Part shown: positions 11,595 to 59,800 of the stretch, one piece after another
Numbering within the stretch: position 1 is the first letter of the stretch
Layout: every line of letters starts with the position of its first letter
DNA from: an uncultured Clostridia bacterium
GTDB taxonomy: Bacteria > Acidobacteriota > Aminicenantia > UBA2199
Reading direction: 5' to 3'
DNA: 64,000 nt
Assembly (NCBI GenBank): GCA_964502145.1
Contig: CAZCVI010000002.1
Coordinates: 117,383-181,382 of the forward strand
Made by a program: the position numbers and the translations under genes
Notes under the pieces: generated by a model
Database searches by the model: none
What the model was told of the DNA's origin: nothing
The model's input: only the letters and a program-made list of their open reading frames with translations

Positions 11595-11924
11595 GTAAAA
11601 ATGGTTCAGAGTAAAGGGGCGGTCTTTTGATAAGGTCGCCCCTGTACCTGCACAGATTCCCCGCAGTTGGAGTCTGTTCCGTTTGCGTCATTTTTTCTTA
11701 CCGCCTAAGATTCACCATCGTATATCTATCGGCATACCTTTTTTTAAGAATCTAATCGTGGATTTAGGAAAAAAGTCAATGCCGTCGCGTGAAAAACAGA
11801 AGAAATTAACCCGTTGAAATAACAGGTGGAAATACATGTAATTCAGGTTTGTTTATTGGCATGATCTAAGGCAAAACAAGAAAACAATGCCTGAAAATCT
11901 AGAATAAATATTCATAAAATTTGC

Positions 11925-11953
11925 TTGACTGTTTTTTTTTGCTATGCTACTAT
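11925..11953 (+). promoter_or_regulatory. Candidate sigma70-type promoter (TTGACT, 17-nt spacer, TACTAT) upstream of the RiPP operon
   Basis: Hexamers and spacing read directly. It lies ~125 nt upstream of the radical SAM gene. Confidence 0.3.
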
Positions 11954-12078
11954 TATTTTTAACCTCTTAAACAAAAACCTAGGTAAAATAAATTGGGTGA
12001 AATAATGCAAGTTAAAAAAAGAGTTGTCAGGCAATGGGAAAACTTTTTCCAGACGACAATTTTCTCGGGTATGTGTAA

Positions 12079-13923: not shown

Positions 13924-13950
13924 CTCCTCTAAAGAGCTGAAAAAACTACC

Positions 13951-16215: not shown

Positions 16216-16322
16216 ATAAGGATCGTAGATCATGTTGTGTACTATTTTCAACGTATTATCCAATAACTTTGGCGTAACACATAAGAAAAATAAAATATAA
16301 ACCAAACAAAGGAGATTTAGCC

Positions 16323-16820
16323 ATGAAAGAGAAAAATTTTACGATTACCGAAAACACGAAACCGCAGGATGTAAAAAAAATCAGGGACATTTATACCAAT
16401 TACCTGAGAGTCATGCTCAAGTGTGCTGAAGACCAAGCTTATTTTGTAGAATTTCAGAAGAACACCCGTGATATCCTGGTCAATGAAGTAGGGATGACCA
16501 TCCCGGAAGGAGTCCCAATTGTTCTTGATGACAATGTAAGATGGGCATCACTGGTCTTAAATGCAAAAGGTGCCGATGGTAGCAATTATGTGGTAAAAGA
16601 AATGGAACTGGGTATCAAAGCCTATGAAACTTGGGCTGATGGAGAACTTGAAGCGTCTATTACCCAACTTACCCATGAAGCCTGCGTTGAAGTTGATATT
16701 AAAGCCGAATTCAAGAATTTTACACCAGCAATTCGTATCCCATTTATTGATGTAACCAAGGATTTACTGGGTGAAATTAGCTTTAATAAGAAGACTGAAA
16801 TCGTTTTAACTTGTTGCTAG
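16323..16820 (+). CDS. NHLP-type (nitrile hydratase alpha-like leader) RiPP precursor peptide, 165 aa, C-terminal ...IVLTCC
   Basis: Leader block TRDILVNEVGMTIPEGVPIVLDDNVRWASLVL matches the NHLP consensus. There is no CSLCSC metal site, so it is not a true nitrile hydratase. GGAG nine nt upstream of the start. Immediately downstream of rSAM and YcaO. Confidence 0.6.
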   Translation: MKEKNFTITENTKPQDVKKIRDIYTNYLRVMLKCAEDQAYFVEFQKNTRDILVNEVGMTIPEGVPIVLDDNVRWASLVLNAKGADGSNYVVKEMELGIKAYETWADGELEASITQLTHEACVEVDIKAEFKNFTPAIRIPFIDVTKDLLGEISFNKKTEIVLTCC

Positions 16821-27813: not shown

Positions 27814-29202
27814 TTGATAAATAATTTTAATGAAGGATATGACATGCCTGAAACAAATAATGAACCAAGATTCACGTGCGATTGGATTTTTAATATACTG
27901 GTGGTCTTAAGCGACGGGAAAGTGGTGTGCGGGTGCGCGGACCCTTATGGTCAGAGACCTCTGGGCCATTTACAGGAAAAGGGAATCTACGAGATTTGGA
28001 ATTCTGAGCCAGTGAAACAAATCCGCCGGGATTTGAACGCGGGACATGCCGATTTCTGCGGTCCCTGCGGTTTGAAACGGTTCCTCAAAGAAAACGAAAC
28101 GCTACCACAAGCACCGGAACACCTGGACGTATTACCCCGACTATTTTTGGAACCGACGGTGTTATGCAACCTGAACTGCTTCAAAGCGGTGTGCAGCAAA
28201 GAAGCGGATATCTTAAAATCGCGCACACGGACTATTTTTCCGGTTGAAGAATTTAAAAGTCTTTTAGATCAAGTGTGGGAGAAACTGATCCGCTTGGATT
28301 TTTTTAACTACGGCGACCCTTTTGTTCATCCACAAGCGGCGGAAATGATGGCTTATATTAAAGAAAAATACAGGCATATCTATCTGTATGTGAGTACGAA
28401 CGGATTGATGCTGGATGAAGAGAAAATAAAAATTCTGGCGGCTTCGGGGGTGGATGAGATTACATTTTCGGTGGATGGGGTAGATCAGGAATCGTATGGT
28501 CACTACCGACAGGGCGGGGATTTTAATAAAGTGCTGGGGCTGATGGCCAAAATGGTAGCGGAGCGAAATAAAATAGGTCGCGAAGTGCCTTTTATTAACT
28601 GGCGTTATATTCTGTTTAATTGGAACGATTCCGTTGCGCAGATGAAACGGGCGAAAAAACTGGCGGCCAAAATCGGCGTCGATCGTTTTACCTGGGAAAT
28701 CACGGATCACCCAGTAGAAGGGAAATCGGAAAAATACCAGATCGGCACGGAGGCATGGAAAAAGATATATTATGAAATCTGGGATACGAGCCAAATTGGC
28801 AACGTGGTGAAAAAGAATCGTTTCATGGCAAAAATAAAGGTCTTGTCTGGACGGGTGGATATGGCGGTTGGGGGTGACGCTGTGAATGTCCGGGTGCAAG
28901 TGAAAAACAAGGGGGGCGCACTGTGGCGGAAAGTAACGTGGTCGGGTCGTAGACTGGTTCGCCTGGGCGCACAATGGTATGACAGGGATAAAAAACTGCT
29001 GGACCTGAATTATGCACGGGTGTTTTTAAATAAAGACTTGGGTTATCGGAAAAAAGATATCTTAACGATCACGTTACCGCCATTATCGCAACCTGGGGAG
29101 TATTTTCTGAAGTTTGATATGGTTTCGGAGGGCAATGATTGGTTTGAAAACGGGGGCTCGCCAGTGGTGTGGGTGCCGTTTAGGGTTTATGCGGGGGGGT
29201 AA
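27814..29202 (+). CDS. Cys-rich Fe-S / radical-SAM-like protein (non-canonical CNLNCFKAVC plus N-terminal CGC...CGPCG cluster)
   Basis: TIM-barrel-like pattern (LYVSTNGLML, DEITFSVDG) after the Cys motifs. Assignment is tentative. Confidence 0.45.
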   Translation: MINNFNEGYDMPETNNEPRFTCDWIFNILVVLSDGKVVCGCADPYGQRPLGHLQEKGIYEIWNSEPVKQIRRDLNAGHADFCGPCGLKRFLKENETLPQAPEHLDVLPRLFLEPTVLCNLNCFKAVCSKEADILKSRTRTIFPVEEFKSLLDQVWEKLIRLDFFNYGDPFVHPQAAEMMAYIKEKYRHIYLYVSTNGLMLDEEKIKILAASGVDEITFSVDGVDQESYGHYRQGGDFNKVLGLMAKMVAERNKIGREVPFINWRYILFNWNDSVAQMKRAKKLAAKIGVDRFTWEITDHPVEGKSEKYQIGTEAWKKIYYEIWDTSQIGNVVKKNRFMAKIKVLSGRVDMAVGGDAVNVRVQVKNKGGALWRKVTWSGRRLVRLGAQWYDRDKKLLDLNYARVFLNKDLGYRKKDILTITLPPLSQPGEYFLKFDMVSEGNDWFENGGSPVVWVPFRVYAGG

Positions 29203-38070: not shown

Positions 38071-41000
38071 ATGAGTCAATTAGAAAGAAAGAAAATTGCG
38101 GATATTCTGATGTTAACGCATTTGCAAGAAGGGATTCTATTTCACTATCTGCAAGAACCCAAAAGCGCGCAGTATTTTGAACAATTAAGCCTGGAAATCT
38201 CGGGGGAGATCAATCTGGAACTATTCAAAACCGCATGGCATACGGTCATCCAAACCAATGAGATGCTGCGCACTGTATTCCGCTGGGAAAAAATGGAGAA
38301 ACCAACCCAGATTATCTTAAAAGAACATACCTGCGACATCACTTTTTACGACCTGACAGATGAAGCGACAAACAGGCAAAAATCCCGGCTGCAAGAGATT
38401 AAAGACAAGGATAAACAAACACCCTTTGACTTGCAAGAAGTGCCCATGCGAATTATGTTGTGCAAGCTAGGGACACACGATTATGAAATGATCATCAGCA
38501 ACCACCATATCATCTATGATGGCTGGAGCAACGGGATCATTCTGAAGGAATTCTTCAGGGCATACTATGGGCTAAGCGCGGGAAAACCTGCGCTCCTCCC
38601 GGACAAACCCTCTTTCAAAGAATTTATCAAATGGCTTCAAAACGAGGATAAATACGAAAAGGATAAACAAAAAGCGTTTTGGCGCGATTATCTAGCAGGT
38701 TTAGACGGTCAGACGGAATTACCGCTAAAAAACATAAAAAATAGAAAAAACACTGGCTCCAAGCAGGTAGAACACTATTCACTGGTTCTTGAACCGGAGT
38801 TAAAAGAGAGGTTGGAGGCGTTTGCCAAAACCAAGCGGTTCACTTTGGCCGGGGTGTTCTACACTGTCTGGGGGTTATTGCTACACCAGTATTGCAACAG
38901 CCAGGATGTTCTGTTTGGCACAACTGTAGCCGGTCGTTCCGCACGGATAAAAGGCATAGAAGAGATGGTGGGGCTGTTTATCAATACGATTCCATTACGA
39001 ATCCAAACGACTCCTGGTGAAAAAATGGTGGCGGTGGTCAGCGGCGTGGATCACGCGTTACAGGCCCGTGAACTTTTTGAGAATACACCGTTGTTGGATA
39101 TCAGAAATTACAGTGGCTTGTCTGGTTATGTATCGCTGTTTGATACGTTGGTAGTGATTGAGAATTATCCATTGGATAGTCGTTTACTGCCCGAAGAAAG
39201 CGGGTTGTCAGTTCATGCTTTTACTATTGCTGAAATGACCCATTATGATTTAACCGTGGGCATTGTGCTTTTTAATGAGATAGCCGTCACGTTTTCCTAT
39301 AACCCGGAATTATTCGCCCAGGAAATGATTGCCCATTTGGCCGGGCATTTTTTGTCTCTGGTACAGATGATTATAGAAAACGGCGAACAGGACATTTGCG
39401 CCATAGAAATAATCTCCCCTGAAGAAAAGCACCGCGTATTATATGAATTTAATAATACCGCCGCAGAATACCCATCAAACAAAACGATTCCCCAATTATT
39501 CATGGAACAATCCGCCCGGACCCCAGACTACATCGCCCTTATCTGGGAAAAAAGCGGGGCGTGCCATATATCCTATGCCGAATTAAATGAACTATCCAAC
39601 CGTCTGGCCTATTGGTTGCAAACAGAAGGCATTAGGCCCGATACTATCGTGGCTATAATGGTAAATCGTTCCATTGAAATGATTGTGGGCCTCATGGGTA
39701 TTTTAAAAGCCGGTGCCGCCTATTTACCGATTAACCCGGAATACCCGGCTGAACGAATTCAATTTATGCTGCAAGACAGCACCGCAAAAATCGTGCTCAC
39801 CGAACCAATCATCCAAGCAACCACTTCCCATATTCCCATTCCTCCCATAATTCCCATAATTCCCATTCCTCCCATAACTCCCAGTAATTTAGCCTATGTA
39901 ATATACACTTCCGGCACCACCGGCAAACCCAAAGGCGTTTTAGTAGAACATCAAAATGCCGTTAATGTGGTGTGCTGGTTAGGGCGAAAATATCAATTAA
40001 ACCCCGATACCCATATTATCTTGATGTCCGATTATACCTTTGATGCCAGTATTGATCAAATCTTCGGTGCCTTGTTGCATGGTGCCTCTCTTTATATCGC
40101 CAGTAAAGAGTTCATGTTGGATATGGATGCTTTACGCCATTACATCAATAAAAATCGGATCAATTTTATTAATTTTGTGCCGCTAGTGCTCAATGAATTG
40201 CTGGGCTATCGGGAGAAATTGCCCAGCTTAAACACCGTGATTTCCGGTGCAGAGCGGTTGGACGATACTATCAAAGATAATATCCTGAAGCGCGGCTATC
40301 ATTTATATAATCATTATGGTCCCACAGAAACCACGGTGGAGACACTGGTCTTCACTTGTACAGACGCTCCAGTTTACCTGGGGAAACCCATAGCCAATAC
40401 AAAAATTTATATACTTGATCAATGGGAACATATCGTTCCAATCGGCGTACCTGGAGAATTGTATATTGCCGGGGCCGGATTGGCCAGGGGGTATTTGAAC
40501 CGGTCCGATTTAACGGCGGAGAAATTCGTGGCCACACCCCATGGTGTAGAGAATGACCCTGTATCTCGAACCTATCGAACCGGGGACCTGGGGTGTTGGC
40601 TGCCCGATGGAAATATTGCGTTTCTGGGACGCATTGATCAGCAGGTTAAGATCCGGGGGTTCCGTGTTGAACTGGGAGAAATCGAAGCACAATTGCGCAC
40701 TTTCCCGGAAATAAAGCAGGTCGTGGTGAGCGCAAAAGAAGATAACCGTGGTGATAAAACGCTTTGTGCCTATATTGTATCCCGGCAGCTTTCTACAGGC
40801 CCCACTGCCCCCCTTGACCCAGCCGTGCTAACCACCTATTTAGCCGGTATCTTACCCGATTACATGATTCCCGCCTATTATGTCCAGTTGGCAGAAATTC
40901 CCCTGTTGCCCAATGGCAAAGTGGACCGCAAGAACTTGCCTGAGCCTGTTTTTATTGCCACCCAAGCATACCAGGAACCACGGCATGAACTGGATCGCAG

Positions 41001-44000
41001 ATTGCAAACGATATGGACGAGCGTTTTATTTGGAAACGTGCTTTCAGAAGATTCATCCGCACCACCACCTAAACCCATCGGGATTGATGATAATTTCTTT
41101 CATATGGGCGGACACTCCCTGAAGATCATGAATATGGCAGCTAAAATTCACAAGGAGTTGAACCTGGAAATACCAGTGCAAGAACTATTCACCCATCCCA
41201 CTATCCGGGTTTTGGCCAATTATATAAACACGCGGGAACACACTAAAAATATCACTAAAAATAACTTTGCAGAGATCGCCGCTATTGAAGTAAAAGAATA
41301 CTATCCACTCTCTTCGGCCCAGAAAAGAGTTTATATTTTATACCTCATGGAAACCGATAGCATCAATTACAACATGCACGAGGTATTCCGCCTGGAAGGG
41401 GAACTGGACGTGGGCCGCTTGGAAAAAAGCTTTACCCAATTGATTCGCAGACACGAAAGCTTAAGAACTTCCTTTTTCTTACTCCATGATGAACCGGTCC
41501 AGAAGATTGTGGCCGCCAGTGATGTACCATTCGCCAGCGAATTTTTTGATCCAAACGAAAAAGACACCCTGGTCGAACCTGCCCTAAACGACACCGCGTT
41601 AATGGAAAATACCACTGTTTATGACATCAACCAGCGTTTTTTAAGACCCTTTGATTTGACTCAAGCGCCCCTGTTCCGCGTCGGGCTTATTAAAATCGCC
41701 AAGAACAGCCATATCTTGATGGCAGGAATGCACCATATTATTTCCGATGGCATATCAATTGACCTATTTATCACTGATTTTGTCGCCCTCTACCGTGGCC
41801 AGAACTTACCCCCCTTGCCCATTCAATACAAAGAGTATGCCCACTGGCAGCACCAGAAAAAAGCGCAGGGCGCCTTTAATAGCCAACGCTCCTACTGGTT
41901 GCATGAATTTGCCGGTGAGCTTCCCGTATTAACCATGCCCTATGATTTCCCCAGGCCAGCCGTGCAGAGTTTTGCCGGCGACAAATATTATTTTAACCTC
42001 CCCGCATACGAAACCAAAACGTTAATAAAACGGTGCCAGGAAGAAGCGGTGACTCTTTTTATGATGCTCAGCGCTATCTATTATGTGATGCTGTGGAAAC
42101 TGAGCGGTGCCGAAGAGATCGTGGTGGGAAGCCCCACGGCTGGACGCAGACACGCTGATCTGGAATCCATTTTAGGAATGTTTGTCAACACCCTGGCAGT
42201 AAAAACCAGCCCTGCCAAGGAAACACGCTTCAAACCCTTTTTGGCACAAGTCAAACAAAAGAACCTGGCAGCTTTTGAAAACCAGGAGTACCAATTTGAT
42301 GATCTGGTGGAGGAACTATTACCCGCACGGGATTTAGGTCGCAACCCGTTATTCGACATGATGTTCATCTTGCAAAATATGACCGGCACAACTAACACGG
42401 CGATAAATATTCCGGGCTTAAAAATAACCCGCCTTCCTTTTGAAACGCATATCGCGCCTTTTGATTTTTACCTCATGGCTGAAGAACGACAGGAGTCTAT
42501 CTATTTTACCGTGGGTTATTGCACCAAATTGTTTACGCTGGAAACCGTGCGTCGGTTCATGGGGTATTACCGAGAAATTCTGGCCACAGTGGTCACCCAA
42601 CCCGAGGTGGAACTGGCACGTATAGACATATTATCCCCGGCAGAGAAACGCCAATTAGTGCAGGAATTTAATAATACCCAACGACCGTACCCACAGGGTC
42701 AAACCATTCCGCAATGGTTTGCAGAGCAGGCCGCACGAACCCCAGAAGCCATTGCCGTGGTAGGGGAGGGGGTCATCACCTATCGGGAATTAAATCAACG
42801 GGCCAATCAATTGGCCCACCTGTTGCGACAAAAAGGAGTGGCCCCAGATACCATTGTTGCCCTCTTTATGTTTCGTTCTATCCAGATGGTTGTTGGTATC
42901 CTCGGCATATTAAAAGCGGGCGGCGCTTATTTGCCGATCAACCCCGTGTATCCTGGGCAACGTGTGTTGTCTATCCTGGAAGATAGCGGTGGCAATTATT
43001 TTATAAGCGATGAAAAAACATCCCGCCCTCTTTCTTTTACCGGTTTACAGCGTTTGGATGTGCCCGAAGTGACGCCCCTGGTTACAGCCAAACGACCCCA
43101 GATCACAAATTTTGATAGCTTGCCCCATCCCGATCGTACATTGATTGATTACAGCAAATATCATCGTTATATTGGTATTGCACCCGCCAAATACACCGTC
43201 AGTATCCAGGCCACTCGCGGCTGCCCGTATCAATGTGCCTACTGCCATAAAATATGGCCCAAAACACATGTCATGCGGCGGGCTGAAGATATATTCGCCG
43301 AGATTAGCGCCTGCTATCAGGCGGGGGTGAAACGATTTGTATTTATCGACGATGTCTTCAACCTCAATAAAAAGAACAGCGGCCAATTATTTCAAACCCT
43401 GATCGACCACCACTATGATGTGCAGCTCTTTTTTCCCAACGGGTTACGCGGCGATATCCTGACCCCCGATTTTATTGACCTCATGATTGAAGCAGGCACT
43501 GTTAATATTGATCTGGCCCTGGAAACGGCCTCGCCCCGCTTGCAGAAACTGATCAATAAACAATTGAACCTGGAAAAATTCGCGGCCAACGTCCATTATA
43601 TCACCCAGAAACATCCCCATGTCGTGTTGGAGATGGAGATGATGATTGGCTTTCCCACGGAAACGGAAGCGGAAGCTTTACAAACCCTGGAATTATTGCA
43701 GAGTTTTAAATGGGTCCATTTCCCCAACCTGAATATCCTCAAAATTTATCCCAATACTGACATGGCCCAACTGGCAATTGAAAACGGGGTCAGTCGTAAA
43801 TTGATTCATTCCTCCACCACCCTTGCATTCCATGAGTTGCCAGAAACACTCCCTTTTTCAAAAGATTTTGTCCGGGAGTATCAGGCACGCTTTACCAACC
43901 AGTATTTTCTTTCCCAGGAACGGTTGCGCCATGTATTAAAACAGCAGGTCAAGAGCTTCACCGCCGATGAGCTCGTGCAAAAGTACGACAGTTATTTACC

Positions 44001-47000
44001 CGTGGAGATCAAGTCTTTTGCCGATATTCTCAAGTGTGCTGACATCTCCAGCGCTGCATTGGGGCCCATTGAATTTATTCCCGAAGCCCGCTTTGCCGCT
44101 CCCGATTTTAACCAGCGGATCAAGGCTTTTTTCCCCTCCCGCCCCAGCTCGGAAAATGCTTTTCGTCTCTTGTTTCTTGACCTGTCGCAATCCTTTCGCG
44201 CCGATATGGGCCATACCCTTTACGATGTCGGAGCCGAACCCTTGGGGTTGATGTATCTCGCCTCCTATCTCCAAGAACAACTCGGCCCACACGTTCGGGT
44301 CAAAGTGTTGAAGTCGCGCATTGATTTTGATAGTTATGCCCAATTGCAAGAACAGATCACGTTGTTCCAGCCCCATTTAATTGGTCTGCGCACCCTATCC
44401 TTGTACAAGGATTTTTTTCATCGCACTGTTTCCCTGTTGCGGCAATGGGGCATTACCGCGCCTATTATTGCTGGTGGACCCTATGCCACCAGCGATTACA
44501 AACAAATGCTCCAGGACCCACACATCCATCTCGCCGTGCTGGGAGAAGGAGAAGCCACTACCCTCCATCTGGTTAAAGAGATGATGACCAAAAACAATAC
44601 CTGGCCCGCCGACGACGTATTGGAAACCATTCCCGGTCTCGCCTTTATTCGCCAATCAGAGCGAATGTTAACCACCGCCCCCCAGCGGCAGGTGCTCTTG
44701 TTGGACCAGATTTCTGGTCCATTGGCCCACTTTCCCACCACCAATCCCCAGAACGTCAATCACCCCGGTGATTTGCTATATTTGATCTCCACTTCCGGGT
44801 CTACCGGGAAACCCAAGAGCGTGATGGTCGAGCATCGCACCCTGGTTAATTTGCTGCATTTTCAATTCCATCATACAGCCATCCATTTTTCCCGTGTCTT
44901 GCAATTTGCCGCCATCGGGTTTGATGTCTCCGTGCAAGAGATTTTTTCTGCCTTACTCGCCGGTGGCACTTTATATCTTCCTGACGAAGATATGAAAAGC
45001 GATGTGCCCCGGTTGTTCCAGTTTATCCAGCAGAACCAGATCGAAATTCTGTTTCTGCCTCCTGCATTTTTGAATTTTGTTTTTTCTGACCCCGACTATA
45101 TCCCATTATTTCCCGACTGTGTGCGCCATATTATAGCTGCTGGCGAACAATTGATCGTGAACGAGGCGTTACGATTGTTCCTGAAGCAGCGGCACGTGTA
45201 TCTCCATAATCATTATGGCCCCTCTGAGACCCATGTTGTCACCACCTTGACCATGGATCCCACCCAGGAAATCCCCCATTTCCCCGGTATTGGCAGCCCC
45301 GTATCCAACACCGGCATTTATATCTTGGATAGCCAAAGCAATCTTTTGCCCCTGGGTGTTAGCGGCGAATTAAACATTGGCGGTATCCAGGTCGGGCGTG
45401 GTTATTTGGGTAATGTGGCGTTGACTGCCGAGAAGTTTGTGCCGAATCCCTTTGTCCCCGGTGATCGCTTGTATCGCACCGGTGATATGGCCCGATGGTG
45501 GTCAAATGGGAGTATTCAGTTCTTGGGACGCTTGGATTTCCAGATCAAAATCAGGGGTTTTCGTATTGAACCCGGTGAAATCGAGGGACAATTAAAAAAA
45601 CACCCGGATATTAAAGAAACAATTGTCCTGGCTCTGGCAGATAATAAGGGCGAGCTCTATCTGGTGGCTTATGTAGTGTTACAGCCGCAGACTACCATGC
45701 CCCTCTTACGGGAATTTTTATTGAACCGATTGCCGGATTATATGGTTCCCGCCCATTTTATCCCTCTGGCACGAATTCCCTTGAACGCCAGCGGGAAAGT
45801 CGACCGTCATGCGTTACCACCACCGGAAAATACACCGGGAAACGGGCATGTAGCACCACGGGACCCCATGGAAAAAAAATTGGCCGCTATCTGGTGTACC
45901 GTGTTGGGGAAAGATGTTGCCCAAGATACAGTCAGTATTGATGATAATTTTTTTCAAATGGGTGGGCACTCCTTAAAAGCCACCGCCCTCACCTCCAGGC
46001 TAGCCAAAGAGTTTCATGTTAAAGTGCCCCTCGTGGAGATTTTTAAAGAGCCCACCATCCGGGGCCTTTCCGGTTATATTGCCCATTCTATGGTGGAGCA
46101 ATACGCTGGCATAACTCCTGTAGAAGAGCAGGAATACTACCCCTTATCGTCAGCGCAGAAACGATTGCACTTTTTACAACAAATGGATAAAGCGGGAACC
46201 ACCTATCATCTGACTAGTAACTGGCTGTTGGAAGGTGTTGTCGCTAAAAACCACCTGGAACAATCGCTGCTAAAACTGCTACAACGCCATGAGAGTTTAC
46301 GCACTTCCTTTGATATCATAGCCGAAGAACCCGTGCAAATCATCCACCCGAAATTAGCATTTGTTATTGAAGATGAACATGCTACCATGGATTCTTTCCT
46401 GCGTCCATTTGCATTATCACATGCCCCGTTGCTGCGCGTCGGATTGGTAAAAATAGCAGCCGAAAAGTTTCTCTTACTCGTGGATATGCATCATATTATT
46501 TCCGATGGGTTGTCCATGGATATTCTGAGCCGTGAATTCACCGCTCTTTTGGCAGGCGTAGAACTCCCCCCATTACGTCTCCAATACAAGGATTATGCCG
46601 CGTGGCAGAGTTCTGAAAAAGAGAGCCCCCACTTCCGTCAACAAGAATTATTTTGGCAGCAAGAGTTTAGCGGCGCCATACCCGTGCTCGATTTGCCCGT
46701 TGATTATAGCAGACCACCCGTTCAAAGTTTCGCCGGGGCATCACTTCCTTTTGCCCTATCTCGTGATAGCGTTGTTTCCTTGCAAGCCATAGCAGTAGAA
46801 GCCAGTGCCACAATGTACATGGTGCTGCTCACATGTTATACTATCTTTTTAGCTAAAATGAGCAACCAGGAAGATATTGTCATTGGCACACCCATTGCCG
46901 GTCGCAGGCATGCAGACCTGGAGAAAATTATCGGGATGTTTGTCAACACATTGGTGTTGCGGAACTATCCGGTAGCGGAGAAAAAATTCAGCGATTTCCT

Positions 47001-50000
47001 GGCTGAGGTCAAAGAGAGAACATTAAAAGCATTTGAAAACCAGGAGTACCCGTATGAAGATTTGGTAGACAAAGTCACGATCACCCGTGACGTCTGTCGC
47101 AATCCCTTATTTGATACCATGTTTGTATTGCAAAATGCCACCCCACCACCCGTGGACATTCCCGGCTTAAAAATAGCGCCCGTGCCGCAGGAAAACAAAA
47201 CCGCCAAATTTGATCTGACTCTAACAGCAGTGGAAACCCCGGAAAAAATAGAATTGAACTTCGAGTACTGTACTAAATTATTTAAAAAGGAATCCATCCA
47301 CCGGTTTATCACCTATTTTACCAATATCATCGACTCCGTTCTGGCAGACCCCTTCATTGTCTTGGGTCAGATTCCCCTGCTCTCCCCAGCACAACGAGAG
47401 CAACTGCTGGTGGAGATCAACGCACCCGCCATCCGCTATCCTAATTTCAAGACCATTCAGGGTTTATTCGCCGAGCAGGTCAAAAAAACGCCGGATCGGC
47501 CAGCACTAACCGGTATCAGGTATGATCAAGCAGAAACTCACCTGACTTACCGGCAATTGGACCAGCTTTCCCGACAGTTGGCCCACCAGTTAACGGGTAG
47601 GGGATTGGGTCCTAACAAGCGAGCAGCCATAATGGTAGGCCGAAACGTGGAAATGATTATTGCCATTCTTGGAATTATTCAGGCCGGGGCCGCGTATGTT
47701 CCCTTGGACCCCCAGGCCCCTGTCGAACGATTGCACTATGTATTGGCTGATTGTGGCGCAGAATTATTATTAACCTTCCGCCCATTGGCTGCACGATTGG
47801 CTCCCGCCATAGATACACTTTACCTGGAAGAGTTTACCACCCTCCCTGCCACCCCTCCCGATGCCGTTCTCTCCGGTCATCCTGATGATCTCGCCTATAT
47901 TATATATACATCCGGCTCAACCGGTAGGCCCAAAGGTGTTCCTATTTGCCACCGCAATGTATCGCCCTTATTGTTTTGGGGGTATCGGTACTTAGGGATT
48001 TGTCGTCTAGATCGTGTTATCCAGAGTCCCTCCTATTATTTCGACTGGTCTGTCTGGGAGATATTTATTACCCTTACCAGCGGGGCCCATTTGGTAATGA
48101 TTAGCGAGGAGCTTGTACTTGATCCCCCGGCGTTGGTGGAATTTATCCGGCAGCACGCCATTACCACCCTGCACATCACCCCCACCCAGTTAAGTTATCT
48201 CGTGAATAGCAGACGCCCTATGCTCTCGTTGCACCATCTCTGTATTGGCGCCGAGAAATTAACCTATGATCTTGTAGCCCGTGCTCTTCCCCTGCTTGCA
48301 ACCGATTGCCGGATTTACAATATGTACGGTCCCACCGAAGCCACCATCATTTCCGCTGTGGCCGAGATTGACCGTGAGCAAATTCCGTTCTATCTCAAAC
48401 TGCCCAGTATCCCTATTGGTCACACCATCGCCAATACCACCCTGTTCGTATTGGATCATTCTATGAACCCCTGTCCCATCCATGTTGTTGGTGAACTGTA
48501 CATTGCCGGGGATGCCTTGGCCCGTGGTTATCTCAATGATCCAGAAAAGACCGTAGCCAGTTTCGTCACCAATCCCTTTGCCGAGATTTGCGGTCCCTAC
48601 CTCTACAAAACCGGTGATCGCGTTCGTCGCCTGGAGGATGGCAGCATTCTCTTTTTAGGTCGCGCCGATGATCAGGTAAAAATACGCGGCTATCGCATCG
48701 AGTTGGGGGAAATTGAGAACTGGCTGCTACACTATCCACACGTCAAAGATGCTCTCGTGCTGGTCAAAGCGGATCATCTACAGGAGAAATATTTATGTGC
48801 CTATGTGGCGTGTCCCATTGAATTGGATACCGCCGAATTAAGGGATTTCCTCGCCGCCAGACTTCCCGCCTATATGATCCCCGCCCATTTTATCACGCTT
48901 GAACATATGCCCCTCAACCCCAATGGCAAAGTCGATAAAAAACGCCTGCCCCTCCCTGAAATGCAAACAAGCCCACAAGTCGTCGCCCCCAAAAACGATC
49001 TGGAAAAAACCATCCTCTCTATCTGGCAAGACGTACTTGGACTCGACCACGTAGGCACCACGGATAATTATTTTGAACGGGGTGGCAATTCCATGAATAT
49101 CGTTAAAGTCAGTCACCGTTTAAAAAGTGTATTGAACCGCGATATCCCCGTGATGGACCTGTTCCGTTACCCCACCATCAAAACCCTGGCCGCTTACCTC
49201 AACCAGAGCCCCGGCCATGTCCCTTTCACCCCGTCGGAGATAGGGGAGTCCCTCCTACTTAATCAACCCGAAATACCCCGACATGAGAGTGTTTCTACCA
49301 CTCCCGCGATTGCCGTGATTGGTATGGCCGGAAGGTTGCCCGGTGCGAACACTATTTCCGCATTCTGGAACAATCTCAAGCATGGTGTCGAATCCATTGC
49401 TTTTTTCTCCCCCGCAGAATTCGCAGACAACGGGGGTGATCCCCGGTCCGTGAACCTGCCCAATTATGTTAAAACCCGCTGTGACTTGCAAGATATCCAG
49501 TATTTTGACAGTTCATTTTTTGGGTACACCCCCGTGGAAGCCGAAATAATAGACCCCCAGATGCGCCTATTTCATGAATGTGTCTGGGAAGCTTTTGAAG
49601 ATGCCGGTTATGAGTCCGGTTCTTATGCCGGTCGTATCGGGCTTTATTCCGGTGGGGAATCCAGTTCTTTCTGGGAAACATTAACCTCTTTATCCCAGAT
49701 TGGTCAGTTGATGAATCCCTTGATTCTGGGCAATTTAAATAATAAAGATTACCTCAGTTCCCGTATTGCCTATAAATTTAATTTACGCGGGCCATCCGTC
49801 ACCATGAACACCGCTTGTTCCACCTCACTTGTCGCCATTCATTTTGCTGTTCAGGGTTTGCTCAACCGCGAGTGTGAGATCGCCCTGGCCGGTGGCGTGC
49901 GGGTCATGCTGCCCGGAAAAACCGGCTATCTCTATCAAGAGGGTATGATTCAATCCCCAGATGGTCATTGCCGTGCCTTTGATGCCAGGGCCAATGGCAC

Positions 50001-53000
50001 CGTGGGTGGCGATGGCGTCGGTGTTGTAGTCTTAAAAACTCTGGCACGGGCCCAGGTGGATGGCGATCATATTTATGCTGTCATCAAAGGTTCTGCCATT
50101 AATAATGATGGTATTGGCAAAGTAGGTTACCATGCCCCCAGCATCAATGGTCAGGCTGCCGCCATTCGCGCCGCGTGTGCCAATGCTGCCATTGATCCCG
50201 GTAGTATCGGTTATATTGAAACCCATGGGACCGGCACCCAGTTGGGGGACACCGTGGAGATAGAGGCATTAAAACTCGTTTTTAACGCCCTCGTCTTGCC
50301 CCAGCATAAAAATACCTGCGCTATCGGGTCAGTCAAAACCAATTTTGGTCACCTGGGCAGTGCCGCCGGGGTGGCTGGATTCATTAAGACCGTATTGACC
50401 TTAAAACACCGCCTCATTCCACCCAGCTTGCACTTTGAACGCCCCAACCCGAAGATTGATTTTGAAAACAGCCCCTTTTACGTCAACACCCAATTAACCC
50501 CGTGGCCCTCCACCCTTCTTCCCGCGCGGGCCAGTGTCAGTTCCTTTGGCATAGGCGGCACCAACGCCCATATTATTTTGGAAGCCGTGGCCCCTACCAG
50601 CCCCGCATTCCCCGCCAGCGCCCGTCCCGATCAATTGCTATTATTATCCGCCCGCACCCCCGCTGCCCTGCACACCATGTCCGTCAATCTGCTGGAGTAT
50701 TTAAAAGAAAACCCGGTGCTTTCCCTGGCCGATGTGGCCTACACCTTGCAAGTGGGCAGAAAGCGTATGGCAATCAGGAGAAAGCTGGTATGTTCCACTT
50801 CCGCCCAGGTGATTGACCAGCTTGCTGCTTCCGGGCCCGCCCATGTCGGCGCTTACACCGCCTTGGTCGCCGATGAAGATAGGAAAGTTATATTTATGTT
50901 CCCTGGTCTTGGTGCGCAGCACGTTAATATGGGGCGCGGGCTTTATCACACCGAACCCATCTTCCGCGATGTGATGGACCGTTGTTTTGCTATATTAAAA
51001 GACCTGTACCCCGTGGACATAAAAGAAATTCTGTACCCTGCCGGGGAAATCTCGCCGGCATCAAACAGCCAATTCCACTCCTTTGAAGTCGAGCAACTCG
51101 TGTTGTTTGTGTTTGAATATGCCTTGGCCAGACTCATTTTGTCGTGGGGCATTCAGCCCCATGCCATGATCGGTTACAGTTTTGGCGAGTATGTGGCCGC
51201 CTGTTTAGCCGGGGTGTTTCGCTTGCAGGATATCTTAAAGTTGCTGGTCGTCCGTGGGCGGCTCATTTCCCAGCTTCCCGCCGGTGCCATGTTAAGTGTT
51301 CCCCTGCCAGTGGAAGCCGTGCAGCCTTTTCTTCCCGCCGAATTATCCATCGCCATAGACAACCGTTCCTCCTGCGTAGTTTCCGGGCCCGCCCAGGCCG
51401 TGGCTTCCTTTGCTCAGCAGATGAAAGCCAAGAAGCTCTTGTGTCCGCCCTTTGAATCCCCCTTTGCCGCGCATTCGTCGCAGTTGGACCCCATATTGGC
51501 GGAGTTTCACAAGGAAGTCGCTACAATTTCCCTCCAGACCCCGCAAATACCCTATATTTCAACCTGTACTGGCACATGGATCACTGTTGCCGACGCGCAG
51601 TCCCCAGAGTATTGGGTCAAACAACTCAGGTCCACCGTTTATTTTGTCCGCGGTATTCATCAGATTATAGAAGGGGTCTCCCCGGTATTTCTAGAAATGG
51701 GCCCCGGACGCGACATGAGTGCCCTGGTGAACCGTGAGATCACCGCTAAAACCGGCATACAGACCATGAACCTCCTCCGTCATCGCGGTTCCTTAAAAGA
51801 GCGCACCGATGAAGATTACTTGCTGGATAAAATCGGTCGCTTATGGTTGTATGGCGTGAATATAGACTGGCAAGCCTATCATTCCGGCCAGAGACGAAGT
51901 CGTCTCTCATTGCCTACCTATCCCTTTGAGAAAAAGCGGGCCTGGAAAATTATGGAAAATTATCACGCCGGTCAATATTCCTATCTACCCGGCGCCCCCG
52001 GTGCGCCAGAGAGTTCGCACCCGGCCCAAGGAACACCTCTGGCAGAAACACCGGGTGATCATTGGACACAAGAGCCCCCCCATCTCGAATGGAATGCTAG
52101 GCCGCAACTTTCCACCTCATATGTCGCTCCCCGCGATGAGGTGCAACAAGTCCTGCTTGATATCTGGCAGCATTTTTTTGGTATTCAAGAGATCGGTATC
52201 ACCGATGATTTTTTTGAATTGGGTGGCGATTCATTAAAAGCCACCACCCTGTTATCCACCCTGCACAAGGAAGCCAATATACTCGTCCCCCTCACTTATT
52301 TCTTCGATAATCCTACCATTGAAAAAATCGCCGCTTATGCCATAACCAGTGAAAATGACGCAGACCCAGGCGAAAAAGAGTTCCATGCCATCCAACTTTT
52401 GGAACAGAAAGAGTATTACCCCCTCTCTTCCGCGCAAAAGCGCATGACCTTTTTTCAGCAGTTGGACCAGACCAGTATCGGATACAACCTGGTGCTGGCA
52501 AACACCATCCAGGGCAATCTGGATACCCTAAAACTGGCCGCCATATTCACCAAACTAAGCGCACGGCACGAGATTTTGCGTACCTCTATTGAAGAGATAC
52601 AGGGTGAAACCGTCCAAAGAATTCATCCACATATTGCTGCCACACTGATCACCGGTCATGGAGAGTCCCCCGAAGTATTTATCGCCCAGTTCATCCGTCC
52701 CTTTGATTTAGCCCGTGCCCCCCTCATGCGGGTCGGGTTGTTGTCTATGGCCGAGCAGCAGTATTTATTAATCGTCGACATGCATCATATCATCTCTGAT
52801 GGCACGTCATTGGCCGTATTGATCGGAGAGTTTTTGGCTCTGTATCAGGAAAAAGAGTTGCCTGTTCTGTTGTTGCAGTATAAAGATTACGCTGTCTGGC
52901 AGAACCAGGAAATGGCCGGTGGGTTGTTTGTTTCGCAGCGGGATTACTGGATAAAGACATTTGCCGGTGAAGTTCCCGTGCTTGAATTGCCTTATGATTG

Positions 53001-56000
53001 TATCAGGCCGTTGGATCGCACCTATGCTGGCGATCTGTTGGCCTTTGAAATTGATCGTGCAGAGACTTCGGCGTTAAATCATTTCGCCAGTCAGCAGGGG
53101 GTCACATTGTACATGGTGTTGCTCTGCTTAACCACTATCCTTTTAGCCAAGTTAAGTGGTCAGGAAACCGTGGTCGTAGGAACTCCCATTGCCGGTCGTA
53201 CCCATGCGGACCTGGGCCGGATTATCGGCATGTTTGTCAATACCCTGGCCATGAAGAATGAACCCAATGGCCAAAAAACTATCCAGGAATTTTTAAAGGA
53301 AGTCAAAGAAAACACCTTGAGTGCTTTTGCCAACCAGAACTACCAGTATGAAGAACTGGTCGAGCACCTGCCCATAGATCGCAGTCTAGGCCATAACCCC
53401 TTGTTTGACACCCTGTTGGTCTTGCAAAACATGGCTCTGCCCAATATCAATATTCCCGAATTGACCTTAACACCCTATCCGTATCATACCGGTTTGGTAA
53501 ATTTTGATTTGACTTTCCTGTGTGTTGAAACCCCAGCTACCCTCTCGTTCACCCTTGAATACAGTACAGAACTCTTTAAAAAAGAAACCGCCCAACGCTT
53601 TATCGGTTTTTTCAAAAAGATATTAACCACCGTATTGGCGCACCCCGAAGGAAAAATATCCCAGATCGAGATAATATCCCAGCCAGAAAAAACCCAGATT
53701 TTATATGATTTCAACAACACCACCGTTACATACCCGGCCAACCAAACCCTTCCCCAATTATTTTCCGACCAAGCCGCACGAACCCCAGACCATATCGCCA
53801 TTATTGGTCCCACCCTGGCTCTAACCCACTGCCAATTAACCTACTCCCAATTAAACGAAGCATCCAATCGCCTCGCCCATTGGTTACTTTCCACTGGCGT
53901 CCGTCCCAATACCATCGTCGCCATCATGATCGAACGTTCCATTGAATTGATCATCGGCATTATCGGCATATTAGAATCCGGTGCCGCCTATCTTCCCATC
54001 GATCCCCAATACCCCGAGGAGCGAAAACAATATATACTAGCAGACAGCAATACAACCCTCATCCTAACCCAACACTCCATCCAACAAGCCATTCCCATCA
54101 CTCCCATCACTCCCAACACTCCCATAATTCCCATACTTCCCATCACTCCCATAAATCTCGCCTATATCATCTACACTTCCGGTTCCACCGGCAGACCCAA
54201 GGGCGTCATGGTAGACCATCACAGCATCGCCAACACCTTGTATTACCGCTGCCAGGAATATCGTATCGTGCCCAGTGATCGTGTACTCCAATTGTTTTCC
54301 TTTGCTTTTGATGGATTTCTCACCTCTTGTTTTACCCCCCTGCTTTCTGGCGCATCTGTCGTGCAGTTAAGCCAGGAGGACATAAAAGATATCTTCCGTA
54401 TCAAAGAGATGATTGTCGCCCAACGAATCACCCACTTTATCGCTGTCCCGTCCCTGTACCGCTCTTTATTGGAAGTCGCCACTGCCCTTGAGTTATCCCA
54501 CCTAAAAATCGTAACCCTTGCCGGTGAGCAGGTGCCCCCCGACCTCGTGGTAAAAAGTAAGTCTTTAAACCCCTTGTTGGAATTGGTCAATGAGTACGGT
54601 CCCACCGAGAGCAGTGTCCTGACCTCCATACACAGAAACCTCGAACCCGGTGCCATTATTTCCATCGGTAAACCCATAGCCAATACCCGGATTTATATTC
54701 TTGATCAAGATGATCATGTTGCCCCCATCGGGTTACCCGGTCAACTCGTTATATCTGGTCTTGGTTTGGCCCGCGGGTATCTCAATAATCCCCAACTCAC
54801 CGCCGCTACATTTTTCTCTTTAGCCCATTCAGCCACCTTCGCCACCCTCTCACCAAAACTCTATAAGAGCGGTGATTTGGCCCGCTGGTTGCCAGATGGA
54901 AACATAGAGTTCCTCGGTCGCATTGATCAGCAGGTTAAAATCCGTGGCTTCCGTATTGAATTGGGCGAGATCGAAAACCAACTGCTTCGCCATCCCCAGA
55001 TCAAAGAGGCAGTAGTGGATGTTAGAACCGAAAACAGCGGCGATCACTATTTATGCGCTTATATTGTCACCCAGGGCGAATGGGACATCTCCCAGGCAAG
55101 AGAATATCTGGCCAAGACCTTACCCGATTACATGATTCCCGCGCATTTTGTCGCCTTGGAGAAAATCCCCTTGTCCCCCACTGGCAAGATTCTACGTTCA
55201 GCCTTACCCCAACCGCAATTAAAAAGCGCGGCCCAGTACGTGCCCCCCCGCAATGACATAGAACAACAATTGGTAGAGATATGGACCGAGATTTTGGGCA
55301 GTGATCCATTGTTTGCCTCTTTTTTACATCCCTCTATAGGCATTGATGATAACTTTTTCCATCTCGGTGGGCACTCCTTAAAAGCCATGACCATGGTCAC
55401 CAAGCTCCATAAAGCCCTAAATGTTAAAGTGCCCTTGGTGGAAGTCTTTAAAACCTTGACCATCAGGAAACTGGCCGCCTATATTTTAGGTTTAAAAAAA
55501 GAGTTATACACCGCCATCCAACCCGCTGAAACCAGAGAGTATTATGACTTATCCTCTGCCCAGCGCCGGTTTTATATCTTGCAGCAAATGGAGCTGGACA
55601 GTTTTGCCTACAACAATTTTTCCGTCATGGTTTTGGACGGATTATTTGATAAAGAGAAATTTGGCCACGCGTTAAACCAATTGATCGCCAGACATGACAG
55701 TTTAAGAACCTCTTTTGAATTAATCGGAGGTGAACCTTTCCAAAAGATACATCAACAAGTAGTCGCGGAAATCGCTTATTTTGATTTCACCCCTCCCGGA
55801 AAAAGTCAGCTCTTAGAATCCACCATCCAACATTTTAACCGTCCTTTTGATTTATCTCATGCCCCCTTGCTCAGGTTCGGCATTATTCTCGTGGAGCAGC
55901 AAAAATCCTTGTTGCTGTTAAGCCTCCACCATATCATCAGTGACGGCACATCCATCGGCACCTTTATGAACGAGTTAATTTATTTATACCTGGGCCGAGA

Positions 56001-56891: not shown

Positions 56892-59800
56892 ATGTCTAAA
56901 GGAAAAGAAACCATGAGAAAACAAACCAATGCCCCCTCCAAACTAGCTTTTGTTTTTCCCGGAATTGGTTCTTTATGGAAACAAATGGGCCTTCGCTTAT
57001 TACAAGAAGACGTTTTTCGCACGACGATCCAGGAATGCGATGAGGCCTTTCGTTTGAATCCCTCAGTCGCTTGGTCAATTGTAGAAGAGATCAACGCCCC
57101 GGTAGCGCTTTCAAGAATCGAAGATATCTGTATCGGTTATCCCTGCGGCTTGGCTATTGAGATAGCCTTAACCGCCTTATTAAAAAGCCGTGGTATCCTC
57201 CCCCATGCTGTAATCGGTCACAGTGGTGGCGAAATTCCCGCGGCTTATGCCGCAGGCATTCTGAATTTACCCGATGCCTTTCGCGCTATCTGGGGTCACT
57301 ATATGGAAATGAGCAAAAGAAACAACGCGGTCAACATGGCCTATATCGGCTTGCCCGTAACCAAAGTGGCGCAAACCATACAACTCCACCACGCCCAATC
57401 CCGCATATTCATCGCCGCTGTAAACAGTCCTAAATCCACCATCATCTCCGGTCACACAGACGCCATTAAACCCCTGCTGGAATCTCTCGCCAAAGAAAAA
57501 GTATTTTGCCGCATCTTGGACACCCTGGGCGCGTTTCATTCTCCGATCATGGAAGAGAATAGAACGGAAATTTATACCCGCTTAAAAGACATCCAAGCCA
57601 AAGAAGCCACCATCCCCTTTTACTCCTCCCTGTTAGGCAAATTGGGACACGATAATCTTGCGCTACCCTTGTACTGCACCAATCTGATGATACAACCCGT
57701 GTTGTTTGCCGATGGCATTCAAGCCCTGATTAAAGATGGCTATACCACCTTTTTAGAGATCAGCCCCCATCCCGTTCTTTCCAGAAATATCCAGGAAATA
57801 CTCGAAGCATGCAACCTAGAGAACGCACAGGTTCTGCCAACCTTAAAACGCGATGAGGACGACAAAAGAATGTTCGCAGAATGTCTCGACCATCTTGCCA
57901 CAGCCCACCCCGCATCACACACTTTCTTTTCGTCCCCGCCACCCACCATTGACCCCGCCCAAAAGAAAGCCTTTATCGTAACAACAATCACCCAATCCAT
58001 CCAGGACCTTTTAAAATGCCCCCCTGTTTCCCCTGTGGATGTCTACCTCGGTTTTTTTGATATGGGCTTTGATAGCATGAAAGCATTACAATTTAAAGAT
58101 ATATTATCCCAACGACTCGGTTTATCTCTCCCCGTGACCTTGATCTTTGATTATCCTGATATTCATTCCCTGAGCCACTATTTACTCTCCAGATTTACCC
58201 TATCAACCCCTGCCACAGAGGACAATAACCCGCTCCTTGAAACCAGTACAGAACCCATCGCCATCGTTGGCATGGCGTGTCGTTTTCCTGGTGGTGCCAA
58301 TACCCTCGATACCTTCTGGGACCTATTAAAAAACGGGCGGGATACCGTAAGCGATATCCCCGAGGAGCGTTGGAATGGTCAGATGTATTATTCTCCAGAG
58401 ATCACACCCGGAAAAACCAACACCCACCGGGGAAATTTTATTTCTGGTATTGATATCACCACCTTTGACGCCAATTTTTTCAAGATTTCACCCAAGGAAG
58501 CCAGAGCATTGGACCCCCAGCATCGGCTTCTTTTAGAAGTAACTGTTGAAGCTTTGGAAAATGCCGCCATTCCGCTGTTAAGTATCAGAGATAAACAAGT
58601 CGGCGTGTTTATCGGCATATGTTCCGATGATTATAAATTAGCCCACCTCCATGCCGCCGATTTAACCCACATGGATGCATACGCCGCCTCTGGTTCCATG
58701 CTTGGACCCGCCGCGGGCAGGATATCTTATTTCCTTGGGCTCAGAGGACCATCCCTGTCCGTTGATACCGCGTGCTCTTCTGCCCTGACCGCCCTTCATT
58801 ATGCAGTGTTATCGCTCCGCCACCGTGAATGTGAGACCGTCATCACCGGTGGCGTAAACTGTTTGTTATCCCCTAATATGTTCGTGTATTTGAGCCAGCT
58901 CAATACCTTGTCCCAAGATGGGACATGTAAAACCTTTGATGAAAAAGCCGATGGTTTTGGTAGGGGAGAAGGGTGTGGCGTTTTAGTATTAAAGCGCTTG
59001 TCCGATGCCCGGCGCGACAACGATAATATCTGGGCCATTATCCAGGGTTCCGCCGTGAACCACGATGGCGCCAGTGCCGGTTTCACCGCTCCCAATGGCG
59101 TCGCCCAGCAAGAAGTGATCCAAAAAGCCCTGTTAGATGCCCGTGTTTCCCCTGCCAGTGTCGATTATATTGAAACCCATGGAGCAGGCACGCCACTGGG
59201 CGACCCCATCGAAATACAAGCTATAGCGGAAGTATACGGTAAAAATCGGGCCCAAGATGTGCCCCTTCTCGTGGGCGCTGTAAAAACAAATATCGGACAC
59301 TTGGAAGCTGCCGCTGGCGTAGCTGGAATGATCAAAACCATCCTCTCCTTACATCACCACATCATCCCCCCTCACCTCCATGTCTCCCACCCCAACCCCC
59401 AGATCAACTGGGAACAGATCCCGGTAAAAATAAATACCGGTTTAACCCCCTGGTTCCCCCGTGAGCAACCCAGGCGTGCCGCCATCAGCGGTTTTGGCTT
59501 CAGCGGAACCAATGCCCACGTGATTATTCAAGAACCACCCCTTTGGGCAGATGAAACCAACACCACATCAGACCCATATCCCGTTCATATGTTGAATTTA
59601 TCCGCCAAAACCCCCCGTGCCTTAAACGAATTGGCCCGGTTATACACGGACTATCTTTCCAATCCATCTTTGCCTGATTTAGGCGATATATGTTATACTG
59701 CTGCCACCGGTCGTTCTCATTTTTCTTTTAGATATTCCGCCGTGGGCAAAGATGTTTCTGAAATCAAGCATAAGCTCGAATACTTCCTGGCCAATCAAAC

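Follow-up and report, generated by a model that had tools for sequence, protein, structure and literature searches.

A putative radical S-adenosylmethionine and cobalamin module embedded in an adenylation domain of a bacterial nonribosomal peptide megasynthase

We analyzed a 64,000-nucleotide stretch of DNA from an uncultured Clostridia bacterium (GTDB lineage Bacteria; Acidobacteriota; Aminicenantia; UBA2199; assembly GCA_964502145.1, contig CAZCVI010000002.1, positions 117,383 to 181,382), hereafter referred to as the window. A hybrid nonribosomal peptide synthetase/polyketide synthase (NRPS/PKS) encoded in the window carries a radical S-adenosylmethionine (SAM) domain, followed by a cobalamin (B12)-binding-type domain, between the core motifs a2 and a3 of its second adenylation (A) domain. 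We interpret A domain 2 as a bifunctional interrupted A domain whose tailoring domain, cobalamin-dependent and of the radical SAM type, works in cis and is most likely a C-methyltransferase for proline bound to the following thiolation (T) domain (prolyl-S-T2), and put the probability of this reading at roughly 60%. The broader proposal, that a radical SAM/cobalamin enzyme, here recognized for the first time in such a setting, works in cis within an NRPS line to functionalize C-H bonds (most likely by C-methylation) and at the same time forms a third class, by architecture, of cobalamin-dependent radical SAM enzymes, built as a portable module, seems to us evenly poised. Both the interrupted A domain and the class B radical SAM enzyme occur here in an undescribed form, and the window contributes a single member to a large family that is unannotated. 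All window features described below lie on the forward (+) strand.

The megasynthase is encoded by a single uninterrupted open reading frame (38071-56889, 6272 amino acids (aa), according to the reading-frame list and its translation), with the Pfam layout C-A-T / C-A(rSAM-B12)-T / C-A-T / KS-AT-T / C-A-T / C, where C denotes condensation domains and rSAM the radical SAM domain. A domain 2 has 621 aa separating a2 from a3. In its three sister domains this spacing is 62, 71 and 62 aa, so that A domain 2, the only one of the four to carry an insert, contains about 555-560 surplus residues. An earlier note on this DNA had described a large insertion of about 590 aa at this site; the insertion stands, its length is somewhat smaller, and the motif positions quoted there were recovered within a few bases. 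The N-terminal piece of A domain 2 (42673..43062) comprises a1 (ITYRELN, at aa 1569), a2 (LKAGGAYLPINPVYP, 42910-42954, aa 1614-1628) and the next strand and helix. The inserted module of about 560 aa follows (43063..44745, aa ~1665-2225, delimited by the a2-a3 spacing, an AlphaFold2 model and the family alignment). Near its start lies a lead-in segment, LPHPDRTLIDYSKY (43120..43161), which aligns to residues ~166-190 of AprD4, past the N-terminal B12-like domain of that enzyme, and whose counterpart in canonical class B enzymes is the linker from the B12 domain to the radical SAM core. The core itself, a partial TIM barrel (43207..43698), contains the motif CPYQCAYC (43222..43245), in which C1718, C1722 and C1725 are predicted to ligate the [4Fe-4S] cluster of the radical SAM domain. 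A helical bridge (43759..44124; helices at insert residues 269-390 of the AlphaFold2 model), the counterpart of the helical domain at the C-terminus of canonical class B enzymes, connects the core to a cobalamin-binding-type Rossmann domain of five parallel strands plus an extra one (44161..44649), located C-terminal to the radical SAM core and bearing the B12 signatures IIAGGPYAT (44464-44490) and VLGEGE (44536-44553). The A domain then resumes at a3 (LLYLISTSGSTGKPK, 44773-44817), and its C-terminal piece, which extends from a3 to a10 and contains a proline-type pocket, covers 44773..45807.

The claim that the insert is an in-frame fusion at a2-a3 rather than an adjacent gene was borne out by the continuous reading frame and by a separate prediction of genes on the source contig, in which the protein (P0122, 6259 aa) has the insert in frame and is 100% identical over it. 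The window forms part of a 301,878-bp metagenome contig of the Joint Genome Institute (3300020048 Ga0207193_1000010), and the neighbourhood was also assembled from other sequencing runs. Both domains passed their Pfam thresholds, as the note had anticipated, with Radical_SAM (PF04055) scoring 57.0 bits at aa 1713-1876 (cut-off 29.5) and B12-binding (PF02310) 40.2 bits at aa 2056-2166 (cut-off 32.1), and the Pfam scan of the megasynthase gave no methyltransferase match on the insert. Matches to class B profiles were obtained from NCBIfam for many families, BzaD among them, and all were sub-threshold: no family cut-off was reached, the scores being 94 bits for BchE (cut-off 481), 91.5 for ApyD (750) and 90 for PhpK (600). 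Judged by these profile scores, the module falls within a class B-like radiation and outside every curated functional family.

To assess conservation, we built an alignment of the insert and 73 homologues that occur as stand-alone proteins and share 45-55% identity (n=74). The three cluster cysteines (C90, C94 and C97 in the alignment) are invariant in 74/74 sequences, as are the arginine of the lead-in PDR (R61), the DD-F-N and G-P-E-E residues of the core, and GGP and GEGE of the B12 domain. The regions of the SAM motifs, FIDDxFN and GFPTETE, are invariant or nearly so, and the helical-bridge residues P300, F301, Y317, R323 and Y344 are likewise invariant. The retention of the cysteine triad in homologues, which the earlier note had made a test of its proposal, and of the B12 signatures therefore extends to the entire alignment. 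Beyond the triad, the 74 sequences contain no conserved cysteine, so that one [4Fe-4S] cluster is expected, and the invariance of the B12 signatures suggests that a cofactor site is under selection. AlphaFold2 modelled the insert alone with a mean predicted local distance difference test score (pLDDT) of 88.4 and a predicted template modelling score (pTM) of 0.87, with ordered residues from ~40 to ~587 and the element order strand/helix barrel core, helical region, and five-stranded parallel Rossmann domain plus one strand. A fold predicted with this confidence argues against a degenerate remnant. In a sequence search of the PDB, AprD4 was the best match of the insert (E 2e-17), the alignment beginning at the LPxPDR lead-in. 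Among the neighbours by structure are the methylases MgmA, TsrM, CysS and TokK; at the sequence level, CysS is only marginally similar (E 6e-4).

The domain order of the module is reversed with respect to canonical class B enzymes, in which the B12 domain precedes the radical SAM core and the helical domain, as exemplified by a gene of the window (12079-13923) and by a neighbour of a stand-alone family member at locus L004. In the insert, the two Pfam domains follow each other in the opposite order, radical SAM first. When the family profile was aligned to the canonical L004 neighbour, profile positions 393-509 (B12) fell on residues 23-140 and positions 48-216 (radical SAM) on residues 189-363; the segments thus match the canonical enzyme in swapped order, confirming the permutation that had been suspected from the motifs. 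On the basis of these alignments, the module is a circular permutant, in which the old termini are connected where the helical region passes into the Rossmann domain. The cut falls at the old junction of B12 domain and core, because the lead-in segment stays at the N-terminus of the module. Since the new ends were covalently adjacent in the ancestral enzyme, they should lie near each other in space, and the geometric need for insertion into a loop would thereby be satisfied. The L004 locus itself, from [Clostridium] polysaccharolyticum (GCA_900111595), shows both orders side by side: a canonical-order B12-radical SAM gene (11656-12981, 441 aa) stands beside the permuted stand-alone P0116, the two closing an NRPS-PKS cluster in which an A domain with a fused nitroreductase domain is encoded as well.

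We then considered the host. Modelled in its entirety with the insert (aa 1530-2600, 1071 residues), the interrupted A domain reached a mean pLDDT of 90.5 and a pTM of 0.87, and its A core superposed on the GrsB1 core with 1.1 Å over 388/390 residues, the identity to GrsB1-Acore being 51%. Residues just past a2, which are disordered in the model of the insert alone, are ordered in the whole-domain model (pLDDT ~90). The A core is thus predicted to fold as a single unit around the insert, a point that the earlier note had put forward as a check. A motif search covering a1, a2, a3, a5, a8 and a10 found all of them intact. For the 144-residue pocket segment, TycB1 and GrsB1, the proline modules of tyrocidine and gramicidin S, were the only PDB sequences below E 1e-20, and the pocket stretches FDVxxQ, HII(A/T)AGEQ and HNHYGPSETHVVTT are identical to both. 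The specificity code reads DVQ(F/L)IAHVVK, position 278 being F by MAFFT extraction and L when read against TycB1; both versions are proline-type. The extraction used a GrsA reference, which returned DAWTIAAICK in a self-check, and the exact string DVQFIAHVVK had no match in the open-access full-text literature. According to these comparisons, the host of the insert is a functional-looking A domain with predicted specificity for proline.

The same loop varies elsewhere in the megasynthase. Two 9-bp tandem repeats, TCCCATAAC and TCCCATCAC, with about 6.6 copies each (39826-39889 and 54093-54152), encode the Ile/Pro-rich stretches IPIPPIIPIIPIPPITPS and IPITPITPNTPIIPILPITP and coincide precisely with the a2-a3 loop of A domain 1 and that of A domain 4. 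As repeats and the rSAM-B12 module occupy equivalent loops, the a2-a3 loop appears tolerant of length change.

The earlier note knew of no radical SAM enzyme in this A-domain slot. We likewise found no description of one in the open-access literature, as set out below, but the arrangement is not unique to the window and recurs in a large, widespread family that has escaped annotation. A word-indexed search returned 618 relatives of the insert, falling into NRPS protein fragments from metagenome-assembled genomes of Acidobacteria, Aminicenantes, Bacteroidales, Deferrimicrobium and Clostridia, which are named merely 'AMP-binding protein' or 'radical SAM protein' in the databases, and stand-alone proteins of 540-580 aa. 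When 1.84 billion representative proteins were scanned exhaustively with HMMER, 834 matches were obtained at E <= 1e-30; the best 150 all have E <= 1e-182, several of them align in two stretches, and almost all are megasynthases of 1200-7900 aa that contain the module internally. We mapped motifs in these 150 proteins to determine the placement of 143 module instances: 70 lie strictly between a2 and a3, 55 have only one recognizable flanking motif, four are placed between a10 and T, and the remaining 14 are placed otherwise. By motif count, five proteins contain two copies of the module. The spacing from a2 to the cysteine motif is constant, at 101-102 aa, in fused proteins and genome loci. 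Other contexts comprise an A-[module]-T-C arrangement (L025, L016, P0099), a fusion to an acyl carrier protein (ACP; P0112) and stand-alone copies within NRPS/PKS clusters, at times as tandem pairs between NRPS genes. The module is always found upstream of the T domain in its NRPS module, fused to ACP, or free in an NRPS cluster.

Genome matches came from Aminicenantes, Clostridia, Halanaerobiales, Bacteroidales, Chloroflexota, Elusimicrobia, Ozemobacteraceae and Desulfosediminicola flagellatus IMCC35005 (NZ_CP050698.1, locus L023), mostly anaerobes; the last of these is cultured, has a complete genome, and shows a C-A(module)-T-C arrangement by Pfam. Further genome matches at 28-38% identity (L036 onward) were rejected as family members, having no nearby NRPS motifs and representing ordinary class B enzymes. 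In a rough neighbour-joining tree of 142 cores, which is too crude to order their origin, fused and stand-alone forms are interleaved, and the module of the window groups with a2-a3 inserts from Aminicenantes, Acidobacteria and Bacteroidales. Among the fused instances, 49 distinct host codes were read, with amino acids assigned according to the Stachelhaus code. The proline-type code DVQF[IV]AHVV occurs about 20 times, DFWNIGMVH (threonine) 12 times, and DAHFQAHVV, to which we assign no amino acid, seven times, while a few instances each carry DGFFLGVVY (Ile), DAFWLGGTF (Val), DAWFLGNVV (Leu) or the Glu/Gln-like DAKDIGVVD and DAQDIGIVD. From the variety of these codes, the module would serve many side chains, purely aliphatic ones included.

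The family also contains more elaborate and more reduced forms. At L017 (869-7192), a di-interrupted A domain combines the rSAM-B12 module at a2-a3 with a class I methyltransferase (Methyltransf_12/25/11) at a8-a9; the spacing in L014, L022, L026 and L028 indicates the same pattern, and this kind of di-interruption is absent from the families of the 2020 census of interrupted A domains (PMC8341866). Two sets of shorter proteins look complete but have lost all of the A domain save its a1-a2 piece, which precedes the module. Those of about 725 aa (P0009, P0010, P0014, P0018, P0024, P0026) consist of this piece, the module and a short tail ending in DYDF, and in those of about 1040 aa (P0013, P0040, P0043, P0052, P0057, P0060, P0062) the module is followed by the C-terminal half of a condensation-like domain, ending in DFGF. 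The 6272-aa megasynthase ends in ...DDAEIEF, and the three endings may represent a common C-terminal docking motif.

Based on these data, we propose the following cycle for module 2. The A domain would adenylate proline and load it onto T2 (45877..46080, Pfam PP-binding aa 2603-2670), the presumed carrier that hands the substrate to the radical SAM module, and the phosphopantetheine arm would bring prolyl-S-T2, or a peptidyl intermediate, to the embedded active site. There, the reduced cluster would split SAM, and the resulting 5'-deoxyadenosyl radical would abstract a hydrogen from a C-H bond. The substrate radical would gain a methyl group from methylcobalamin, yielding a C-methyl-proline residue, after which cob(II)alamin would be reduced and remethylated by a second SAM and the downstream condensation domain C3 would condense the modified residue. 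A carrier-tethered substrate is suggested by the position of the module upstream of T, fused to ACP or within an NRPS cluster, by the a2-a3 junction being an established site of tailoring inserts, and by the known interrupted A domains, in which modification follows loading onto T (PMC8341866). C-methylation is the likeliest chemistry because the cluster and B12 signatures are invariant, because the aliphatic hosts (Pro, Val, Ile, Leu) offer unactivated C-H bonds alone, because most characterized cobalamin-dependent radical SAM enzymes are methylases (PMC13331322), because methylases are among the structural neighbours, and because there are NRPS-linked precedents in CysS, crystallized with a pantetheinylated substrate according to PDB titles, and in DscE, by which Ala and Val residues of discodermin are methylated (PMC12858407). 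As to the site on proline, both C-beta and C-alpha are possible by analogy, the latter with MgmA, a top structural match, and the former with enzymes acting on peptides that are made by the ribosome and modified after translation (RiPPs). Among these RiPP precedents, the bottromycin methyltransferases yield beta-methyl-Pro and PoyC yields tert-Leu.

Several observations weigh against C-methylation. AprD4 (PDB 6fd2), the best match by sequence, is also the nearest solved structure by fold, and this enzyme is a diol dehydratase whose B12-like domain is not known to bind cobalamin; the next-nearest matches, MiaB and RimO, are methylthiotransferases. The NCBIfam scores, moreover, are so far below the cut-offs that no function can be transferred by orthology. 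With AprD4 remaining the closest structure, non-methylating chemistry keeps an appreciable probability. The module may be active in another radical reaction, such as AprD4-like dehydration or elimination, formation of C-C or C-S bonds, ring chemistry of the OxsB/BchE type or methylthiolation as by MiaB/RimO, and its B12-type domain would then be structural or use cobalamin differently. We consider this a minority prospect that nevertheless deserves weight. Dehydration-type chemistry would find no hydroxyl or thiol handle on the Pro, Val, Ile and Leu hosts, methylthiolation would need the auxiliary-cluster cysteines of MiaB and RimO, which are not conserved here (C90, C94 and C97 alone being invariant), and the invariant B12 signatures suggest a selected cofactor site.

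A radical epimerase, standing in for the missing epimerization domain by removing the C-alpha hydrogen and returning a hydrogen on the opposite face, appears improbable. The downstream C3 (46120..47430), when typed against solved C domains, scored 413 bits with the TycC6 C domain (2jgp), which is of the L-donor type, compared to 86 and 61 bits with those of TycB1 and SrfA-C, which are of the D-donor type; C3 is therefore L-donor-like by similarity, which disfavours epimerization and led us to reject this role as unlikely. In addition, radical SAM epimerases are not known to have a B12 domain, unlike the module with its invariant B12 signatures. A further view takes the insert as an inactive relic or structural spacer in an A domain that is plain or dead. 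It recalls that a2-a3-interrupted A domains were first proposed to be inactive (PMC8341866), and the shortened relatives of ~725 and ~1040 aa, with a degenerate or missing A domain after the insert, point the same way. In a relic, however, the radical SAM and B12 catalytic signatures would hardly be invariant at about 50% overall identity, and the confidently predicted fold, the intact a3-to-a10 piece and proline pocket of the host, and the equivalent architecture kept in many phyla are equally hard to accommodate. We therefore reject a degenerate relic, given conservation and fold confidence, as very improbable. Finally, an assembly or frameshift artefact joining an adjacent radical SAM gene to the NRPS gene, conceivable for a window taken from a metagenome contig, is effectively refuted by the A domain being in frame on either side of the insert with both pieces building one A core, by the matching GC content (0.489 for the insert, 0.482 for the whole megasynthase gene), and by the recurrence of the constant-spacing architecture in more than 100 independent megasynthases, including that of the complete D. 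flagellatus genome.

The surroundings of the module are those of a larger assembly line. Upstream of the interrupted A domain lies the condensation domain C2 (41293..42660, Pfam Condensation aa 1075-1530), which best resembles the TycC6 C domain (2jgp, 366 bits). A second megasynthase begins about 3 nt past the first gene (56892-63998) with the layout AT-T-KS-AT-T-class III aminotransferase-C and is incomplete, extending beyond the end of the window, and the cluster is of the NRPS/PKS hybrid type, including a beta-amino-forming step. About 22 kb upstream of the NRPS, the region 12079-16820 resembles a RiPP-type cluster in its own right, perhaps for azoline/thioamide formation plus C-methylation: the canonical-order B12-binding/radical SAM protein (12079-13923) is directly followed by a YcaO protein with winged helix-turn-helix and ThiF-like parts (13951-16215), and then by a reading frame of 165 aa (16323-16820). 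The window further encodes a 1758-aa signalling protein (17061-22337) with Ser/Thr kinase, STAND AAA_16 ATPase, GAF and SpoIIE phosphatase parts, and a 462-aa radical SAM protein (27814-29202), whose core motif CNLNCFKAVC is of the form CX3CX4C, not CX3CX2C, and whose domain order is also unusual, a SPASM-like Cys-rich motif (aa 22-85) standing ahead of Radical_SAM (aa 113-247).

Known tailoring on assembly lines relies on polar or flavin-/NAD(P)H-dependent redox chemistry, namely N/O/S methylation, epimerization, reduction and oxidation. If our interpretation holds, functionalization of unactivated C-H bonds would join this on-line repertoire, offering a possible origin of C-methylated peptide residues without dedicated precursor pathways and pointing to a large hidden pool of C-methylated nonribosomal peptides containing, for example, methyl-Pro, tert-Leu or beta-methyl-Ile. 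As the module serves many A specificities and uses two insertion sites, it could provide a cassette-like radical methylase for NRPS engineering. Tools for mining biosynthetic gene clusters may miss the tailoring step and mispredict modules, because the records bear only generic names. The size of the family, with its cultured members, makes the hypothesis directly testable.

With the known interrupted A domains, A domain 2 shares the preserved host core motifs and the foreign domain between a2 and a3. In TioN (a2-a3) and in TioS A4-M-A4 (a8-a9, PDB 5wmm), the inserts are class I methyltransferase (M) domains of 260-270 aa, which perform SN2 reactions on N, O and S nucleophiles, whereas the insert described here comprises about 560 aa, is of a two-cofactor type ([4Fe-4S] plus B12-type domain) and would attack C-H bonds by radical chemistry. 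Ketoreductase (KR), oxidase and monooxygenase inserts in A domains are also known. The 2020 census describes M domains only (types I-VI), at a2-a3, a6-a7 and a8-a9, and does not mention radical enzymes (PMC8341866); the statement in the earlier note that inserts are limited to class I methyltransferases at a2-a3 or a8-a9 was thus too narrow, a6-a7 being a published site as well. A paper of November 2025 still applied the words 'an unusual enzyme combination' to an NRPS that is merely clustered with a C-methyltransferase of the radical SAM type (PMC12858407). The open-access full-text literature yielded stand-alone enzymes only (DscE, CysS, argyrin) and no account of an NRPS module with a radical SAM domain built into it, although a report in a subscription journal remains possible. 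Of these enzymes, CysS (cystobactamid) and DscE (discodermin) carry out B12-dependent radical C-methylation in NRPS pathways, as we propose for the insert, and CysS acts on a pantetheine-linked substrate according to the titles of PDB entries 9n1b and 9n1c. In contrast to the insert, both are separate proteins of canonical order that work in trans, DscE on the finished peptide. AprD4, the apramycin 1,2-diol dehydratase, differs in its N-terminal B12-like domain and its free aminoglycoside substrate, and diol dehydration is unsuited to aliphatic hosts.

Within the radical SAM superfamily, to which the CX3CX(phi)C motif and the match to the TIM-barrel core profile assign the insert, there is a close likeness to the class 1 cobalamin-dependent enzymes (TsrM, TokK, OxsB, CysS, MgmA). 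Shared are PF02310 together with PF04055, the helical domain, CxxxCxxC, the GGP and GEGE signatures, the lack of a DxHxxG histidine ligand motif and a similar structure, while none of the class 1 NCBIfam equivalog cut-offs was reached. The insert has the five-stranded Rossmann-type cobalamin domain characteristic of class 1 but departs from the N-terminal position of the B12 domain in that class (PMC13331322), and it is, in addition, embedded in another enzyme. For the radical SAM field, this domain order is otherwise known only from the unrelated Mmp10 type, and the adjacency of the ends provides a rationale for the permutation. In class 2, represented by Mmp10 with its DUF512 domain, the cobalamin domain is C-terminal to the radical SAM core, as in the insert, and a 2025 review lists Mmp10 as the sole characterized cobalamin-dependent radical SAM enzyme with this arrangement (PMC13331322). 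The cobalamin domain of Mmp10, however, is four-stranded and DUF512/CFeSP-like, as opposed to the five-stranded Rossmann type predicted for the insert. Compared with both classes, the module thus pairs, by sequence and profile matches, the class 1 type of cobalamin domain with the class 2 position.

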